32,000 bases of DNA from Candidatus Saccharimonadota bacterium (GCA_001790095.1 MGBH01000001.1:60001-92000), one strand, 5' to 3'. Positions 18,218-24,609 are shown, numbered from the stretch's first letter. Notes: generated from the letters alone by a model not told the origin. Made by a program: numbers and translations.

Positions 18218-18289
18218 GCGCCTATAGCTCAGCGGTAGAGCGCTACTCTTATAAAGTAGATGTCCTTGGTCCGAATCCAAGTGGGCGCA
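18218..18289 (+). tRNA. tRNA-Ile with anticodon UAU (reads AUA)
   Basis: Acceptor GCGCCTA/TGGGCGC, D arm GCTC-AGCGGTA-GAGC, anticodon stem CTACT/AGTAG with loop CTTATAA (TAT at 18250-18252), T arm CTTGG-TCCGAAT-CCAAG. The T loop reads TCC rather than the usual TTC. Confidence 0.75.
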
Positions 18290-19358
18290 CTAATATTTTT
18301 TGTAAACTTGTCTTCATTTGATCGGAGATATTGTTATATATGTACTCTATCTCTGCTTTACCCAAATTGAGATGCAACGCATGGGTAATAAAAGGATTCT
18401 TCCAAATAGAATATGTACCTAGTTCTTTTGTTTGCGTATTAAGCATGGTCACCAGTATTTGGAGCATCTTTGTGGTCATACTCTGTTTTTTATATAGATA
18501 TGTCAAAAGCGAGAGTGCGCATATCTCAACCGCTACTTGATCTTCGCTTGCCATGATGATTCCGGGATCAAGGTCAACGACATGTGAGGGAAAAAGGGAT
18601 AAAGCTGCATATTTATCAGGTCCAAGGGTGACCTGGGCTTTTGTAGCAGTTAGAAGGGTAAGACGAAGTTTTGATTTGACCGCAAGACTTATCTCAACGA
18701 TCTTTTTAAAGAAAGAGTCGCTTTTGTCATTGACTGTTTTTATACTTCCTTGTATTGCCCGAGTTTTCATAACGAAAGAAAAAGGTCCATTCATATGAAA
18801 TTCTAGTCTACTGTCTTCTCGCAACAGGCCGACAAAGTTCTTAAATCCAAGCGTTACTCCCGCTTGTACATGGGTGCTTAATCGGGGCAGATTGATGATA
18901 TGGTCGACTTTTTTGACCCAGTTAGTGATGAAAAACCCATGTTTCCAGGATAATCCATCAGATTTATATCGATAAAATCCCTTATCCCACCCTTCTTCCT
19001 CAAAAGCGGCAAAAGGAATTTCTTTCATCCTTTTCATACCCGATTTTTCATAGTTGCCCTTAGATGATCCTTTAACAGTCCCGTTTGGACTGTGAAGTAC
19101 ATGTCCGATACCTGATTGGTCACCGATTACGACTCGCGCACCCCTTTGTATTAATAATCGGGCAATTACTTCTATGGTAACTGGATCAGTTGTGGCAGGA
19201 TATGGGTCAGGAGAGTTGAGAGCTGGTTTTAACAATACGACGTCGCCCTTTGAAAGCCATGAAAGATCGTTGGTTGACTTAAGTAATATGTTTTTTATAG
19301 AAGACTCTAGATTCTTTTGTTCTTTTACTCCATATATATAGAGTTTTGATTTATACAT
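18249..19358 (-). CDS. DUF362 domain protein, 369 aa
   Basis: GDVVLLKPALNSPDPYPATTDPVTIEVIARLLIQRGARVVIGDQSG and INLPRLSTHVQAGVTLGFKNFVGLL match the DUF362 family pattern. The last 41 nt including the stop are antisense to tRNA-Ile. Confidence 0.8.
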   Translation of the reverse strand: MYKSKLYIYGVKEQKNLESSIKNILLKSTNDLSWLSKGDVVLLKPALNSPDPYPATTDPVTIEVIARLLIQRGARVVIGDQSGIGHVLHSPNGTVKGSSKGNYEKSGMKRMKEIPFAAFEEEGWDKGFYRYKSDGLSWKHGFFITNWVKKVDHIINLPRLSTHVQAGVTLGFKNFVGLLREDSRLEFHMNGPFSFVMKTRAIQGSIKTVNDKSDSFFKKIVEISLAVKSKLRLTLLTATKAQVTLGPDKYAALSLFPSHVVDLDPGIIMASEDQVAVEICALSLLTYLYKKQSMTTKMLQILVTMLNTQTKELGTYSIWKNPFITHALHLNLGKAEIEYIYNNISDQMKTSLQKILVRPLGFGPRTSTL

Positions 19359-19428: not shown

Positions 19429-19501
19429 GCTGAGATAGCCAAGGTGGTCACGGCGGGGGTCTGAAAAACCTCAGATGCGTGTTCGACTCACGCTCTCAGC
19501 A
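19429..19501 (+). tRNA. tRNA-Phe (anticodon GAA)
   Basis: Acceptor GCTGAGA/TCTCAGC, anticodon stem GGGGT/ACCTC with loop CTGAAAA, T arm GCGTG-TTCGACT-CACGC, discriminator A. The D arm (GCCA-AGGTGGTCA-CGGC) and the 4-nt variable loop are atypical for Phe. Confidence 0.7.
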
Positions 19502-19550
19502 CCTCGGTTAACTCAGTGTAAACACTTCGTCATTTCATTTTTCTATGTAA

Positions 19551-19556
19551 TATAAT
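19551..19556 (+). promoter_or_regulatory. -10 box TATAAT, 6 nt upstream of ATG 19563
   Basis: Read directly. The spacer atcttc contains no SD motif. Confidence 0.45.
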
Positions 19557-19562
19557 ATCTTC

Positions 19563-20174
19563 ATGGGAGCAGAGCATCATCGTTTACCAAAAGAAAACTT
19601 AGGAGTTATAGAGCACAATATTGGCCCAACGATCATTATAGCTAGTTTTTTAAATACTCATAGTGATCCAAGAGGCGAACACCCCAATATAGATATAGCA
19701 ACAAAGAGAACAGGAGTATGGTTGACTACCCCGCACATGATTCAAGATGAACTCTATGATTTCATCATTGGACCGGATGGGTTGGCTTCTTGTATTGCAG
19801 TGAGAAGAAACGATGGTAAACCCGTTATAGTTCAAGGATTTTCAACAGACAGTATTTCTGTTAGTTTAGTTAAAGATGTAGAATCGCATGATAATGCAAC
19901 ATTCACAAATATTCCTGAAGGAGAAGGGACGCAAAGCGTAGTTTCCAAATGGTATAAAAGGGATGGATTTGTTGAGTGCTATACAGTATTAACTCTACCC
20001 ATAAGTCCATCTGACAATCCGGTTAATTCATTTTCGCCATATGCGGAAAGAAAAAATCTTATTAGCGGTATGAACAACAGGGGGTTTCTTAGACTTGTAC
20101 CAAATATGGCATGGCCACTACGAAACACTGACAAAAGCGAGCTACCTTTTGGTCGAGAGCTTGGTAAGCATTAA
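19563..20174 (+). CDS. Hypothetical soluble protein, 203 aa, no family recognised
   Basis: Track ORF with non-repetitive, globular-looking composition and no TM span or signal peptide. It is the first gene after tRNA-Phe. Confidence 0.6.
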   Translation: MGAEHHRLPKENLGVIEHNIGPTIIIASFLNTHSDPRGEHPNIDIATKRTGVWLTTPHMIQDELYDFIIGPDGLASCIAVRRNDGKPVIVQGFSTDSISVSLVKDVESHDNATFTNIPEGEGTQSVVSKWYKRDGFVECYTVLTLPISPSDNPVNSFSPYAERKNLISGMNNRGFLRLVPNMAWPLRNTDKSELPFGRELGKH

Positions 20175-20423
20175 AACTATCTTTTTTCTTCAGTTTATTC
20201 AGTTTTCTTTCAGAAATAGTAGATATTCTTAAACTATGAAATACGGATGAGCCCGTATTTCAAAAAAAGGATAAGGGACGAGTCTGGTACATATACATGC
20301 TTGTTGTTTATGCCAGCCGTATGCTTTTTTTGCTCAGGACATTCAAAACATATGCTCTGAGTTTTATTGTGGAAATAGGTAGTAATAAAAAAAACCAAAA
20401 AAATTTTGAAGAGTTATTTCAAA

Positions 20424-21326
20424 TTAAATAGTTAATTGAAATTGTTGTTTTAACCAATCAATAGCTAAGTTTTTTACATCATTTAATGATCCATAATCTT
20501 CATTAAGTAAATATCCAGCTGCATAGACTATTGCATCATGTCTTTGCTGCAATATTTGACCCTTAGAACGATCAAATGGGTAAAGTTCAAGAGGTAGATT
20601 AATTCTTTCAAGAAACAACTTTTGCAATTCTTCAGTTAATTCATATGGATTTAATCCATTTGGGAGCTTCGTATCAACAAGGAGCAAACTGATAAATCTA
20701 CCTAGGTCCTGCGTGATCGGTCCAATAACAGCATTTTCATAATCTATAACCGCTATTGCCTCTGCAGTTCCTGGTCTAAATAGTACATTAGCTCTACCGA
20801 AGTCGCCATGAATCCATTGATTATTACCTTCATGACTTTCACCTTCAAAAGAAATACATTGTAATGCTCCATGCATTTTTCCCATTAACCCAATTGCAGA
20901 GTCAATTTCAAGTGAATTGTAAGGATATCTATTTTCACCCTCTGTATATTGTGTATGTGTGACTAGCAATCCATCTTCAGTCATAGATACAGGTACTTCA
21001 GGATCAATTAGTTGTCTCCCAGGGATGTCAAAGTGTCTTGACATAGCATCTTCAATAAGAATACCTTTAATTATTTGTGGCCATCGAATGTCACTTTGTC
21101 GCCAATAAATATCAACCTGATTACTTCCTCCTTTTTTAACAACAAGATTCCTATGACCACCATGAAGCAATTCATCTCCCGGTGATAGTACTTTCTGAGC
21201 AGTCTTTTGTTTCCAAACATGTGCATCTTGTGGACATACAGAATTCATGTATGTTGCCTTTTCAGATCCTCGGATAAGCGCTTGAATTGAAGGCGTTATT
21301 TTTAAGTTAACGGTTTCGTGCATCAT
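20424..21326 (-). CDS. Aminoglycoside phosphotransferase / CotS / choline-kinase-like small-molecule kinase fold, 300 aa
   Basis: Catalytic loop WIHGDFGRANVLF (HGDxxxxN, residues 173-180) followed by VIDYENAVIG (D195/E197 metal-binding motif). A Lys-containing strand LVVKK lies in the N-lobe. Confidence 0.75.
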   Translation of the reverse strand: MMHETVNLKITPSIQALIRGSEKATYMNSVCPQDAHVWKQKTAQKVLSPGDELLHGGHRNLVVKKGGSNQVDIYWRQSDIRWPQIIKGILIEDAMSRHFDIPGRQLIDPEVPVSMTEDGLLVTHTQYTEGENRYPYNSLEIDSAIGLMGKMHGALQCISFEGESHEGNNQWIHGDFGRANVLFRPGTAEAIAVIDYENAVIGPITQDLGRFISLLLVDTKLPNGLNPYELTEELQKLFLERINLPLELYPFDRSKGQILQQRHDAIVYAAGYLLNEDYGSLNDVKNLAIDWLKQQFQLTI

Positions 21327-21446
21327 AAATTGTTGAACTAATATTCAATATGAAGGCTTATTATAGCAGATTGCTATAGGATATGTCCACTATACTTATT
21401 AATTTAATTACTTTAATTGAAGACAATACTATTTAATTATCCTTAG

Positions 21447-22682
21447 CTATATTTTAAGAGGAGTAACGGTAATTTCTGGTTTTTGTACTATGGTTTTGGG
21501 ATCATATTGGACATTTATATGATGTTGAGTTACTCTACTTGGAATAGTTATTTCGCCTGATGTTGTTATAAAATCTCCTATTTCCATGGTTTGACTTACT
21601 GCTTTTGGATCTATTAAAATTCTTGAACCCTCCCATGTACAAGTTCTGTCTTGTAAGGATTTTACTAAATAAGGATTATAAGAATTAAACTCAAACCTAC
21701 CGTCTTTAAGCTCACGGTGAACAACTCCAGCTATTGGAAAAGCATGCCCTCCGTTAATAGCAATAAATAATTTAGCCGCTTCAGGTTGAACATGTCCCAA
21801 ATAATACTCAGCAGGACTTATTCCTTTTTTCATCAGCATATGAGCATATCTTGTATTATCGTCACAAACCATCCCCAAATCTAGCCAGTCCACTTCTTGA
21901 AGCGATTTTTGCATAAAAGAATACATTGTTGGTGGGTCAAGAAAGTCACCCAGTTTAAAATTTATACCCAGGTCGTTAATAATTCTATATAAGGGCGAAT
22001 TTTTCTCTCCTTCCCCAAACATCATTACAAGATGATCTGCGATCTGAGAAGCAACAGCATGTTTTTGTTTATAATATCTTCCGTCTAAATTACCTTTCCA
22101 TTTTTCAGGCGGCTCATCTTGGAGTGATCCCTTTCCTCTTTCTTCTGATTTGAGGGGAAAACAATCAACTTTTGTGACTATTAGGGTTTGCTCTGCAAGA
22201 TCAAAATCTATAAATAGTTCTTTGTCAATATTAGAATCTAAGGCAACACCTTCAACTTCCTGTAAATGTTTTAGCATTTCCAGATAACCCATCACCCCAG
22301 CCATTTGAAATTTATATGGTAAATGTCTATTATGATTTTCTGAACCATCCAGTAAAGTTTCACCTTGCGCTCTTTCTAATGCAATCTCATTTGACATTAA
22401 CTGATCACCTTCGATATTCAAAGATTTAACAAGTCTTGTTTTCACTTTCCAACCAGGAAGATGTATTCCTAACTCCTCACATAATGTAACTCTTTCCATA
22501 CCACTATGTTCTTTTAAAAAATCTGCCTCTGCTTTAATAGAGTCCAATTGACCACTACGCGCTCTTTTTATAATGATAGGAGTGTTTCCTAGTGTAGCTT
22601 CATGTATAGTTGCTTGTGATCCTATATCACTTAATAGAGAACCTCGAGTTAATCTATTTGTAGGTGGAACTGTTTCGGACAT
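21447..22682 (-). CDS. Hypothetical 411-aa protein with a degenerate Bud32/RIO/Kdo-kinase-like N-terminal region and an unassigned C-terminal half
   Basis: Track ORF. LLSDIGSQATIHEATLGNTPIIIKRA (loop plus Lys39), AEADFLKE, IALERAQGETL (hinge-like) and ALDSNIDKELFIDFDL (DFD resembles DFG). The catalytic loop does not fit HxDxxxxN. Confidence 0.6.
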   Translation of the reverse strand: MSETVPPTNRLTRGSLLSDIGSQATIHEATLGNTPIIIKRARSGQLDSIKAEADFLKEHSGMERVTLCEELGIHLPGWKVKTRLVKSLNIEGDQLMSNEIALERAQGETLLDGSENHNRHLPYKFQMAGVMGYLEMLKHLQEVEGVALDSNIDKELFIDFDLAEQTLIVTKVDCFPLKSEERGKGSLQDEPPEKWKGNLDGRYYKQKHAVASQIADHLVMMFGEGEKNSPLYRIINDLGINFKLGDFLDPPTMYSFMQKSLQEVDWLDLGMVCDDNTRYAHMLMKKGISPAEYYLGHVQPEAAKLFIAINGGHAFPIAGVVHRELKDGRFEFNSYNPYLVKSLQDRTCTWEGSRILIDPKAVSQTMEIGDFITTSGEITIPSRVTQHHINVQYDPKTIVQKPEITVTPLKI

Positions 22683-22688
22683 CTAATT

Positions 22689-22694
22689 ATTATA
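22689..22694 (-). promoter_or_regulatory. -10 box TATAAT, 6 nt upstream of the ATG at 22680-22682
   Basis: The plus strand reads attata at 22689-22694. The spacer ctaatt is 6 nt. Confidence 0.5.
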
Positions 22695-22762
22695 TCAATA
22701 AAGCTAATAGGACAATATCTTGCGTAATACTCGAATTATACTTATTTGAGTTTGACTCACAT

Positions 22763-23611
22763 TCAAGCATTAATAGACATAAGTTGTCTAGTTATTTGAA
22801 TAGCTCCTTTTCTCACAGGGTCAAATTTTTCAATAAAATCTTCCCATCTTTCAGGTTGAACAAATTCTTCATTTTCAAGAGCTTTTTCAACCGCCTCCAG
22901 ATGCGCTTTTCCAACAACAATTCCTTTTCTACCAGGTAGTTCAGTCATTAAACGTTTAATATTTGGACCCAAATATTCATATTCACTCAGAAATCCTCTA
23001 TAACATATTGCGATAGCAGCTGTTAATCTTAAGATGTCTAACAACACCTCATCTGTAATCGTTTCGGGAAGTTGACCTTTATTTATTACAATGCTCCGTA
23101 GCCGATTTTTTATACTAGCTATGTCTAAAGACTCAACATTGTCTTGTATTGACAAGACTCTTTGAATGCCGTCATCTATCGCCTTAAACGCTTCTTGTGT
23201 ACTTTTTGCATTGATAATAGGTTCTGCATACTGGCTAAGCAACAGATAGGTACCCATTTCGTTTTTATCTAATCCATATTTGTCTGTCATCTCAAAGATA
23301 TTACAACCTTCTTCCAGCGGATGAATTGGAGTTTTATGTTTTTTTTTAAAGGTTGATACAATGTATCTTTCATAAGCGAACTGGTCAAAGTCATACATTT
23401 TTCTAAGGGATGTTGAGGTGCCTTCACATAATAAATTATCACAAGTTCTCAATACAGGAAAAATTTTCATTCTCATTTCAGGTGAAACCTGGGTTGCAGT
23501 ATGATTTAATGCAAAGATGTTAACACTCCCTCGTGAATATATATCTGGTTCAACTCTGAGAGCTATTTTTCTTGGCAGCTCAATTCTTCTTGGTACAGCA
23601 AGCTCAAACAT
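22763..23611 (-). CDS. Hypothetical 282-aa protein, possible TraB/GumN/Tiki-like fold
   Basis: Track ORF. N-terminal IFALNHTATQVSPEMR..LLCEG resembles the GTxHVxxxS..E motif, and C-terminal GIVVGKAHLEAVEKAL resembles the VVGxxHL motif of the TraB/PrgY/GumN family. This is a weak motif-level call. Confidence 0.55.
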   Translation of the reverse strand: MFELAVPRRIELPRKIALRVEPDIYSRGSVNIFALNHTATQVSPEMRMKIFPVLRTCDNLLCEGTSTSLRKMYDFDQFAYERYIVSTFKKKHKTPIHPLEEGCNIFEMTDKYGLDKNEMGTYLLLSQYAEPIINAKSTQEAFKAIDDGIQRVLSIQDNVESLDIASIKNRLRSIVINKGQLPETITDEVLLDILRLTAAIAICYRGFLSEYEYLGPNIKRLMTELPGRKGIVVGKAHLEAVEKALENEEFVQPERWEDFIEKFDPVRKGAIQITRQLMSINA

Positions 23612-23617
23612 ATTTGT

Positions 23618-23623
23618 ATTATA
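23618..23623 (-). promoter_or_regulatory. -10 box TATAAT, 6 nt upstream of the ATG at 23609-23611
   Basis: The plus strand reads attata at 23618-23623. The spacer atttgt is 6 nt. Confidence 0.5.
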
Positions 23624-23708
23624 CTATAAGTTATTCACTACCATATCTCTGTTTGTATTTTTATATCAAGTTTGATAAGATACCATCTTATTACTTTAAC
23701 TAATCAAT

Positions 23709-24266
23709 ATGCCCTCATTACATGAAGACATGCGATATGAAACTGTATTTGGTGTTAATGGTGAATCATTAAAACAAACTCCACATTATTTTCATGTAAC
23801 CATCTCGGAAGGTCAATCATTGTGGGGAGATGCTTTAGGTTTAGCCGAAAACGTTAAAACATCAATGGATCCACTTTTTTATAGTAGAAACGGCGACAAT
23901 CTTGGATTAACCGTGCAGGAAGTAGGAAAATTTGGAGCATCAGCAGTAACATGGAAAGATACTAAAACAAATGAGACGCGTCTTCTTATGATGACAGATG
24001 GTTATAATATTGTTGTTCCAGATCCGAGTTTTCTCCCAATTGGAGATCAGTGCTGTAATGATGCAAGCGGTATCAATATTGGGATACAAGGTCATGATGA
24101 TTTGTCATCTTACCAGAAAAGTATGCCATGGGTTAATGCAGTTCTTACAAAGCTAGGTATGAATAACGGAAAAACAGCAGAACCTTTAACCATTGAGGAA
24201 ATGGCAGGTCATATGAGAAGAAAAATAAACGAGGCTCAGATAAAGAATAGAAGATCTCATTTTTAA
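23709..24266 (+). CDS. Hypothetical soluble protein, 185 aa, no family recognised
   Basis: Track ORF, divergent from the 282-aa gene, with globular composition and a basic C-terminal tail RRKINEAQIKNRRSHF. Confidence 0.6.
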   Translation: MPSLHEDMRYETVFGVNGESLKQTPHYFHVTISEGQSLWGDALGLAENVKTSMDPLFYSRNGDNLGLTVQEVGKFGASAVTWKDTKTNETRLLMMTDGYNIVVPDPSFLPIGDQCCNDASGINIGIQGHDDLSSYQKSMPWVNAVLTKLGMNNGKTAEPLTIEEMAGHMRRKINEAQIKNRRSHF

Positions 24267-24402
24267 CTTCTTAAAGAGACAGTTTACTTATGTAGCCGGG
24301 GACAACAATTCTCTATGTCATAGACATAAAAAAATTTGTGTTGGAGATGACTATTCTTAAGAATTAGCCTGAAGCAAAGACCTTGAGAGGCAAACAGAGC
24401 TG

Positions 24403-24411
24403 TGATATACT
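24403..24411 (+). promoter_or_regulatory. Extended -10 promoter TGaTATACT upstream of the tRNA-Gly fragment/hairpin
   Basis: TG at 24403-24404 and TATACT at 24406-24411. The predicted transcription start falls just before the tRNA-like fragment at 24421/24422. Confidence 0.45.
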
Positions 24412-24420
24412 TTCTTCACA

Positions 24421-24486
24421 TGCGGTGGTAGTTCCCCACTTCGTTCCAATATATATTGGAACTTCGAGGGGCAAGCTACAAACGCA
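24421..24486 (+). other. tRNA-Gly 5' fragment (14 nt) fused to a long imperfect hairpin; a pseudo-tRNA, leader or small insertion remnant
   Basis: tgcggtggtagttc at 24421-24434 is identical to 24534-24547 (position -1 to 13 of tRNA-Gly). It is followed by CCCC (24434-24437), ACTTCG, the perfect palindrome TTCCAATAT/ATATTGGAA (24444-24461), CTTCGA and GGGG (24468-24471). The outer tgcggtggtag can pair 9/11 with ctacaaacgca (24476-24486). Confidence 0.5.
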
Positions 24487-24534
24487 TATAAGTCAGATAA
24501 CATGTTTACACTTCGAAGCTTTATGCAAAGAAGT

Positions 24535-24609
24535 GCGGTGGTAGTTCAACGGTAGAATGTTTCCTTGCCAAGGAAAAGGTTGCCGGTTCAAATCCGGTCC
24601 ACCGCTCCA
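24535..24609 (+). tRNA. tRNA-Gly (anticodon GCC), CCA encoded
   Basis: Acceptor GCGGTGG/CCACCGC, D arm GTTC-AACGGTA-GAAT, anticodon stem TTTCC/GGAAA with loop TTGCCAA, T arm GCCGG-TTCAAAT-CCGGT, discriminator U, then CCA. Confidence 0.88.

Follow-up and report, generated by a model that had tools for sequence, protein, structure and literature searches.

A rare protein-kinase-like protein with a non-canonical catalytic loop, encoded in a variable tRNA-Phe/tRNA-Gly interval of a Saccharimonadota genome

A 32,000-nucleotide stretch of the genome of a Candidatus Saccharimonadota bacterium (GCA_001790095.1 MGBH01000001.1:60001-92000; hereafter the window, with positions counted from its first nucleotide) carries on its minus strand a gene for a 411-amino acid protein, which is best called a member of a very rare new family within the superfamily of protein-kinase-like (PKL) proteins. 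The first ~285 amino acids are predicted to form a complete bilobal protein-kinase-like domain, and the remainder a β-rich domain of no recognizable kind. By analogy with established kinases, we regard it as fairly probable that the protein is catalytically active as an atypical ATP-dependent transferase. It would most likely be a protein kinase, with the C-terminal β domain acting as a substrate-recruiting or regulatory module. We call the family new because the protein is PKL at the level of fold but fails hidden Markov model (HMM) tests for Pkinase, RIO, Bud32, and APH.

The open reading frame (ORF) given in the initial annotation of the window is present and runs from an ATG start to a TAG stop. 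Its translation contains the C-terminal strings quoted there as well as GSQATIHEATLGNTPIIIK39, AEADFLKE, IALERAQGETL, ALDSNIDKE, and IDFD161, so that none of the quoted peptides is missing. It is a real gene under selection and not a chance ORF, because it has homologues at 22-49% identity, invariant motif columns, and a confident structural model. The gene and its two parts are as follows.

21447-22682, minus strand: whole gene, 411 codons from ATG to the TAG stop at 21447-21449 (ORF list, homologues, AlphaFold2 model)
21828-22655, minus strand: predicted protein-kinase-like domain, amino acids ~10-285 (Foldseek, hhalign, and stand-alone homologues of ~285 amino acids)
21450-21827, minus strand: C-terminal extension, amino acids 286-411, one helix followed by ~7 long β-strands in the model

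Predicted fold

The AlphaFold2 model, built with a 10-sequence alignment (A2), has a predicted local distance difference test score (pLDDT) of 88.2 and a predicted template modeling score (pTM) of 0.87. When this model was searched against the PDB with Foldseek, 139 entries matched at E<=1e-3. The best 50 of the 139 were all protein kinases, among them LRRK2, DCLK1, CK1, Aurora A, PknG, YabT, IRE1, ULK1, and PINK1. Each of these 50 had a probability of 1.00 and ~280-300 aligned columns. The template modeling (TM) scores to PDB kinases were 0.41-0.54 when normalized on single-domain targets, with YabT at 0.54 on target length. In BFVD, the top matches at E<=1e-3 were nearly all annotated as protein kinases, including viral Ser/Thr kinases, or as ABC1/UbiB-type atypical kinases.

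Profile comparisons point the same way. When compared by hhalign with 11 Pkinase domains from Patescibacteria genomes, the family profile aligned over 169 columns (amino acids 21-222; Prob 87%, E 4e-6) with a score of 47.7, as against scores of no more than 18.8 for controls consisting of 30 column-shuffled alignments and the reversed family alignment. A profile of the first 200 amino acids, searched against the PDB, found 23 weak matches (E 0.09-1.6), of which 22 were to kinases; the five alignments shown among these all cover the glycine-rich loop, K39, and E52.

In the model, the N-lobe of the kinase-like domain comprises β1-β5 together with helix C and is followed by a hinge and then by a C-lobe with helices at amino acids 123-144, 206-222, 230-243, 250-261, and 269-285. 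The bilobal kinase-like fold suggested in the initial annotation is thus borne out by AlphaFold2, Foldseek, and hhalign, whereas the extent proposed for it, a minimal N-terminal fold of ~150 amino acids (15-165), proved too short, the fold running on through a full helical C-lobe to ~285. Because the kinase fold ends near amino acid 285, the C-terminal part that the same annotation put at ~220 amino acids shrinks to ~125 (286-411).

The predicted domain is closest to the Hanks-type protein kinases (PF00069), as exemplified by Bacillus subtilis YabT (6g4j) and Corynebacterium glutamicum PknG (7mxj). It has the same bilobal fold over ~285 residues, places the β3 lysine, helix-C glutamate, hinge Glu-x-x-x-Gly, and DFG-type aspartate at equivalent positions, and likewise leads from a long helix E into the catalytic loop, β7, β8, and a helical C-lobe. 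As for elements specific to these kinases, the helices between amino acids 206 and 285 of the model lie in the right place for helix F and the G, H, and I region (~285 Foldseek columns). The 411-amino acid protein differs from Hanks-type kinases in having a one-glycine loop, D-S-[NQ]-x-[DE] in place of HRDxxxxN, and VDC in place of DFG. In addition, sequence similarity ends at helix F, and the C-terminal β domain is extra. The PF00069 model had no match above its gathering score in the protein.

The affinity to Bud32 and RIO kinases proposed in the initial annotation did not hold. Although RIO and Bud32 (PF01163) share with the 411-amino acid protein a kinase-like N-lobe with its lysine and glutamate, their C-lobe is truncated (Bud32 has ~220 amino acids), whereas the protein has a full helical C-lobe and a domain of ~275 amino acids. 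The RIO1 HMM (PF01163) had no match in the protein or elsewhere in the genome, the NCBIfam and Pfam models for Bud32 had none in the protein, and no RIO or Bud32 structure was found among the best 50 PDB matches. Bacteria use TsaD, TsaB, and TsaE without Bud32. The 223-amino acid archaeal kinase TkArkI (7vnx) gave a weak match (E ~0.1) over the glycine-rich loop, lysine, and glutamate.

A different relationship was suggested by the profile search of the PDB, in which the anti-phage protein Ec2ApeA (9hxe) was matched over the helical region 182-282 with a summed E of 1e-4. A relationship to ApeA, or membership of a known defense system, would suit the location of the gene in a variable hotspot (see below), but we consider it extremely improbable. 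The score sums three helical stretches that are individually insignificant (i-E 0.55, 2.7, and 2200), and it vanished when only the N-terminal 200 amino acids were searched. ApeA is also missing from the best 50 Foldseek matches in the PDB. PADLOC, at E<=0.1, returned nothing for the protein and, for its neighbors, nothing but DrmMI (E 0.04) on a 185-amino acid ORF. As neither Foldseek, PADLOC, nor the N-terminal profile supports it, the ApeA match was judged spurious.

The C-terminal extension contains an invariant G-x-F-I-T-T-S-G motif at amino acids 369-376. It has a pLDDT of ~90 in the full model and 69 when modeled alone; the high value in the full model hints at packing against the kinase domain. 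Foldseek found nothing for the extension in the PDB at E<0.1 (best E 0.15, TM <=0.29), and a profile search for stand-alone relatives found none. On the basis of the model, we describe it as a β-rich domain of no recognizable kind.

Members and distribution of the family

Homologues of the 411-amino acid protein are scarce. Among 5.8 billion proteins searched by a word index, three entries came up, namely a shortened copy of the window protein itself, P0002, and P0003, the latter two being 49% and 44% identical to it, respectively, over nearly the full length. Exhaustive phmmer searching of 1.84 billion cluster representatives yielded only 10 proteins at E<=1e-3. Besides the long forms, the family has six stand-alone members of 277-295 amino acids, which match amino acids ~10-280 of the window protein; P0011, a 415-amino acid protein with a hydrophobic N-terminal extension ahead of the kinase-like domain; and P0006. 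The C-terminal extension is carried only by the window protein, P0002, and P0003. In P0006, a fragment of 112 amino acids, the part with the catalytic loop and VDC runs straight into the final 45 residues of the C-terminal domain, in which the invariant GDF[IV]TTS motif is retained, and residues ~197-363 have no equivalent. A deletion variant, a pseudogene, and an assembly artefact are all possible explanations for this fragment. All homologues whose source was looked up lie on short metagenome contigs, which come from Logan assemblies except for one JGI sample.

Neither the 411-amino acid protein nor any of nine homologues is matched by a model in Pfam, NCBIfam, PHROG, or PADLOC, and Pfam gave no match for these sequences even at E<=1. 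Phmmer likewise found no match to the protein among PDB sequences. Scans of viral, genome, and metagenome contig collections brought up no relatives of the family. Searches of the genomes of 60 relatives, of the order's other 222 species genomes, and of a sample of 400 genomes from across the phylum did not find it either. Weak tblastn matches in two of the relatives, G035 and G032 (E 0.015 and 0.16), fell on TsaD genes and were dismissed as being at chance level.

Families of this kind have emerged from structure-based surveys of the PKL superfamily, which include one of the oral microbiome that describes 15 entirely novel families (10.64898/2026.09.18.752743), the Legionella pan-kinome (PMC9758233), and KINtaro (PMC10870513). 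Such novel bacterial families resemble the present one in being invisible to Pfam, in being recognizable as PKL only by predicted structure and profile-profile comparison, and often in being limited to few taxa. The present family differs in coming from Patescibacteria and environmental assemblies and in having a C-terminal domain of its own.

If our assignment is correct, it adds a new family to the PKL superfamily, with a complete kinase fold that Pfam and NCBIfam do not see, in a genome without a recognizable Hanks-type kinase. It would also provide a fold and a testable biochemical hypothesis for one gene of the regions that, in Patescibacteria genomes, turn over fast and defy annotation. 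Those who work on atypical kinases could find the unusual catalytic loop and the orphan C-terminal domain of interest. The impact is limited by the extreme rarity of the family, by new PKL families now being a routine product of structure-based surveys, and by nothing pointing to a substrate or role.

Active-site residues and proposed activity

Conservation was assessed in 10 aligned family sequences (22-49% identity), and the fractions below are counts among these. Elements of the kinase-like domain, assigned from the model and the alignments, are listed in order along the chain; all coordinates are on the minus strand.

Amino acids 11-41: β1-β3, with G21 of the loop kept in 9/10 and K39 in 10/10
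22566-22568: K39, the β3 (VAIK-type) lysine in IIIK, 10/10
Amino acids 46-58: helix C, with E52 in 10/10
22527-22529: E52, the helix-C glutamate in AEADFLKE, in predicted helix 46-58, 10/10
Amino acids ~99-107: hinge ALERAQGE, with E103 kept in 9/10
Amino acids 123-144: helix E, a long helix
Amino acids 146-148: β6
22218-22238: non-canonical catalytic loop D149-S-N151-I-D153-K-E155, amino acids 149-155, between β6 and β7
Amino acids 156-161: β7, containing IDFD
Amino acids 166-171: β8
Amino acids 172-174: VDC, with C174 kept in 9/10
22164-22166: D173 in VDC, the putative DFG-aspartate equivalent, 10/10, aligned to iDfg of Hanks-type kinases
Amino acids 175-205: activation-segment-like stretch, with PPEKW kept in 4/10
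Amino acids 206-285: helices F to I, with W266 in 10/10

Four core catalytic positions are invariant in the family. K39 aligns with the VAIK lysine of MLK4, MLK1, TkArkI, and IRE1 as well as with that of the Patescibacteria Hanks-type kinases, and E52 aligns with the helix-C glutamate of both the PDB kinases and the Patescibacteria ones. The alignments and the invariance of the two residues agree with the initial annotation, which had proposed K39 as the kinase lysine and AEADFLKE as a helix-C-like element, and its hinge (IALERAQGE) and the place it gave to the catalytic loop (ALDSNIDKE) hold as well. Its DFG-like motif does not. IDFD161 sits in β7, where D159 is kept in 3/10 and D161 in 8/10, and it is the invariant D173, further along, that aligns with the DFG aspartate. 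Of the positions whose conservation had been proposed as a check on the kinase assignment, K39 and D149 are invariant, while D159 is poorly kept. The pattern of the catalytic loop across the family is D-S-[NQ]-x-[DE], with D149 in 10/10, N151 in 9/10 (Q in one), and D153 and D/E155 in 9/10 each. PPEKW, which lies 19-20 residues past D173, is APE-like, but its low conservation was noted above.

By analogy with the established kinase mechanism, K39 on β3, held by helix-C E52 in a predicted pair, would position the phosphates of ATP, and D173 in VDC would bind Mg2+. The invariant D149, together with N151 and D153 of the D-S-[NQ]-x-[DE] loop, could supply the catalytic base and a second ligand for metal or phosphate. 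With these proposed roles, the protein would be a catalytically competent transferase rather than a dead pseudokinase. Phosphotransfer to a protein substrate appears most probable, because the nearest structures are Hanks-type protein kinases with full C-lobes. The C-terminal β domain might recruit the substrate or regulate the enzyme.

A number of observations weigh against an active protein kinase. The TM scores to kinases are modest and the root-mean-square deviations large. The glycine-rich loop has a single conserved glycine (G21), the catalytic loop lacks the histidine and arginine of HRD and an asparagine at D+5, and no Pfam or NCBIfam kinase model recognizes the sequence at E<=1. The register of the catalytic loop is also uncertain. 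In the hhalign alignment, the loop lies opposite HrD.KP.N in such a way that, with a one-residue gap, N151 rather than D149 faces the HRD aspartate, and D/E155 faces the asparagine; invariance, against this register, favors D149 as the catalytic base. Furthermore, the C-terminal domain is backed by three sequences and its stand-alone model is mediocre, and no neighboring gene is conserved among the loci of the homologues, so that context offers no clue to the substrate.

The degenerate one-glycine loop, the missing HRD and D+5 asparagine, and the failure of every kinase HMM to recognize the protein would also fit a pseudokinase or scaffold that has kept the kinase fold without phosphotransfer and works by binding a nucleotide or a partner, for which it might use the C-terminal β domain. 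Invariance of core catalytic residues is expected in active enzymes, and these residues are usually lost in pseudokinases. In the present family, the β3 lysine, helix-C glutamate, catalytic-loop aspartate, and DFG-type aspartate are invariant in 10 sequences down to 22% identity, and we therefore hold a pseudokinase to be unlikely, even though co-option of PKL folds as non-catalytic scaffolds is described in the oral-microbiome survey (10.64898/2026.09.18.752743). Of the terms used in the initial annotation, "degenerate" and "pseudokinase" thus lose ground.

The atypical catalytic loop raises the further question of whether the substrate is a small molecule, such as an antibiotic, a sugar, a lipid head group, or a nucleotide, as for APH, choline kinase, and other eukaryotic-like kinases. 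Many bacterial PKL families are small-molecule kinases, and the matches in BFVD include an atypical kinase of the UbiB/ABC1 type. Moreover, the adjacent gene downstream (20424-21326, minus strand), which the initial annotation had correctly singled out as an intact kinase-fold gene, encodes an APH-family phosphotransferase. It matches PF01636 over the catalytic core with 39 bits (cut-off 23.2; E 9.9e-10), and the two enzymes might share a pathway. APH/choline-kinase-type proteins have the same superfamily fold as the 411-amino acid protein and are likewise encoded by bacterial accessory genes, but the Brenner motif H-x-D-x-x-x-x-N and the D-x-E/D found in the neighbor are not present in the protein. 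The PF01636 HMM has no match in it, nor is there an EcKL or ChoK HMM signal, and its best structural matches are protein Ser/Thr kinases, aligned over ~285 columns with the helical C-lobe among them. The neighbor, in addition, has a strong promoter of its own according to a consensus scan, and no APH gene was seen to flank the homologues on the short contigs at hand. An active small-molecule kinase is consequently rather unlikely.

The same D-S-[NQ]-x-[DE] loop could instead accompany a chemistry other than the usual phosphotransfer, such as AMPylation (SelO), glutamylation (SidJ), or 2'-phosphorylation of RNA or tRNA (ArkI); altered chemistry is frequent in atypical PKL families, as established knowledge and KINtaro (PMC10870513) have it. 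The weak profile match to the archaeal tRNA kinase TkArkI would be in keeping with this, but it is insignificant and spans only the generic glycine-rich loop, lysine, and glutamate. As no specific similarity to SelO or SidJ was seen, we rate such a chemistry as very unlikely, and an atypical protein kinase remains the preferred reading.

Gene neighborhood and genome context

The gene lies in a block bounded by two tRNA genes. An extended -10 element, in which TATAAT stops 6 nt short of the ATG, suggests that the gene is probably transcribed from a promoter of its own into an mRNA with almost no leader. The promoter call is only a match to the consensus.

22686-22715, minus strand: putative promoter of the 411-amino acid gene, TTGTCC followed by the extended -10 TGaTATAAT (consensus scan and sequence)
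19504-24534: gene block of 5.0 kb with five ORFs, between tRNA-Phe (19429-19503) and tRNA-Gly (24535-24609)

Four of the five ORFs in the block have no match in Pfam, NCBIfam, PHROG, PADLOC (apart from the one to DrmMI), or PDB sequences. HMM searches lent no support to a TraB/GumN-like nature of the 282-amino acid protein. The same interval is occupied differently in congeners. In G003 and G006 it measures 1.2-1.4 kb and holds a single ORF, not the same one in the two genomes; its length is 2.9 kb in G005 and 4.2 kb in G004. None of the four has a gene in common with the block in the window. The tRNA-Phe/tRNA-Gly interval is a hotspot of gene turnover, and the 411-amino acid gene is strain-specific and accessory. 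The APH neighbor was not found in the 60 relatives' genomes, nor was the 282-amino acid gene of the block, save for one partial match in G038. This match is to a 280-amino acid ORF (L020, 931-1773) in that genome, which belongs to the same order; it is 44% identical over the last 73 residues only and followed by a 316-amino acid ORF of no known kind.

No integrase was found for the block, and at its borders the 3' end of tRNA-Phe is not repeated directly in an att-like manner. An exact 14-nt direct repeat (24421-24434 and 24534-24547) places a copy of the tRNA-Gly 5' end at 113 nt upstream of that gene, and a 23-nt palindrome (24434-24471) lies between the two copies. The G+C content of the block (0.345-0.348) is near that of the window.

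The homologues are on contigs of 1-3 kb, and their neighbors all differ and cannot be annotated as to function; they include an HNH endonuclease, a possible GNAT, a Cys-rich secreted protein of 380 amino acids, and a 273-amino acid HExxH protein. The last of these is encoded upstream of P0003 (L005, 121-942), has the motif HELTH and no Pfam match, and is unrelated to the 282-amino acid protein of the block; it may be metalloprotease-like.

All that the context conveys is an accessory gene located in a turnover hotspot. Because the gene is strain-specific and its interval hypervariable, its role is plausibly an accessory one in conflict or host interaction rather than in housekeeping. A more far-reaching proposal is that the invariant D-S-[NQ]-x-[DE] loop and VDC underlie a chemistry or a substrate out of the ordinary and that the protein, with its structurally novel β domain, serves an episymbiotic Patescibacteria cell as a strain-specific effector in conflict or host interaction. 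We regard this combination as speculative and quite unlikely; if true, it would join a very small number of accessory functions of an enzymatic kind that have been assigned within the "dark" variable parts of such genomes.

The genome, that of a groundwater-type member of the Patescibacteria, is a single contig of 1.217 Mb and 98% complete. A MacB-type permease encoded in the window has its best named relatives in metagenome-assembled genomes of Microgenomates, Roizmanbacteria, Gottesmanbacteria, and Collierbacteria, and the organism is taken to be Roizmanbacteria-like. Searched as a whole, it has no match to PF00069 at E<=1e-3, and its two APH matches are the neighbor and one distant gene. 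Among 151 sampled genomes of the phylum, 14 have a PF00069 match.

Two further features of the window lie outside the block. A tRNA-Ile gene occupies 18218-18290, its UAU anticodon being encoded in the genome, and the 3' end of a DUF362 ORF on the opposite strand (18249-19358) overlaps it by ~40 nt; owing to this overlap, the last residues of the ORF are probably not genuine. Between 972 and 8709, five consecutive minus-strand genes match PMT or PMT_2 (dolichyl-phosphate-mannose-type glycosyltransferases) and form a tandem array of paralogues.

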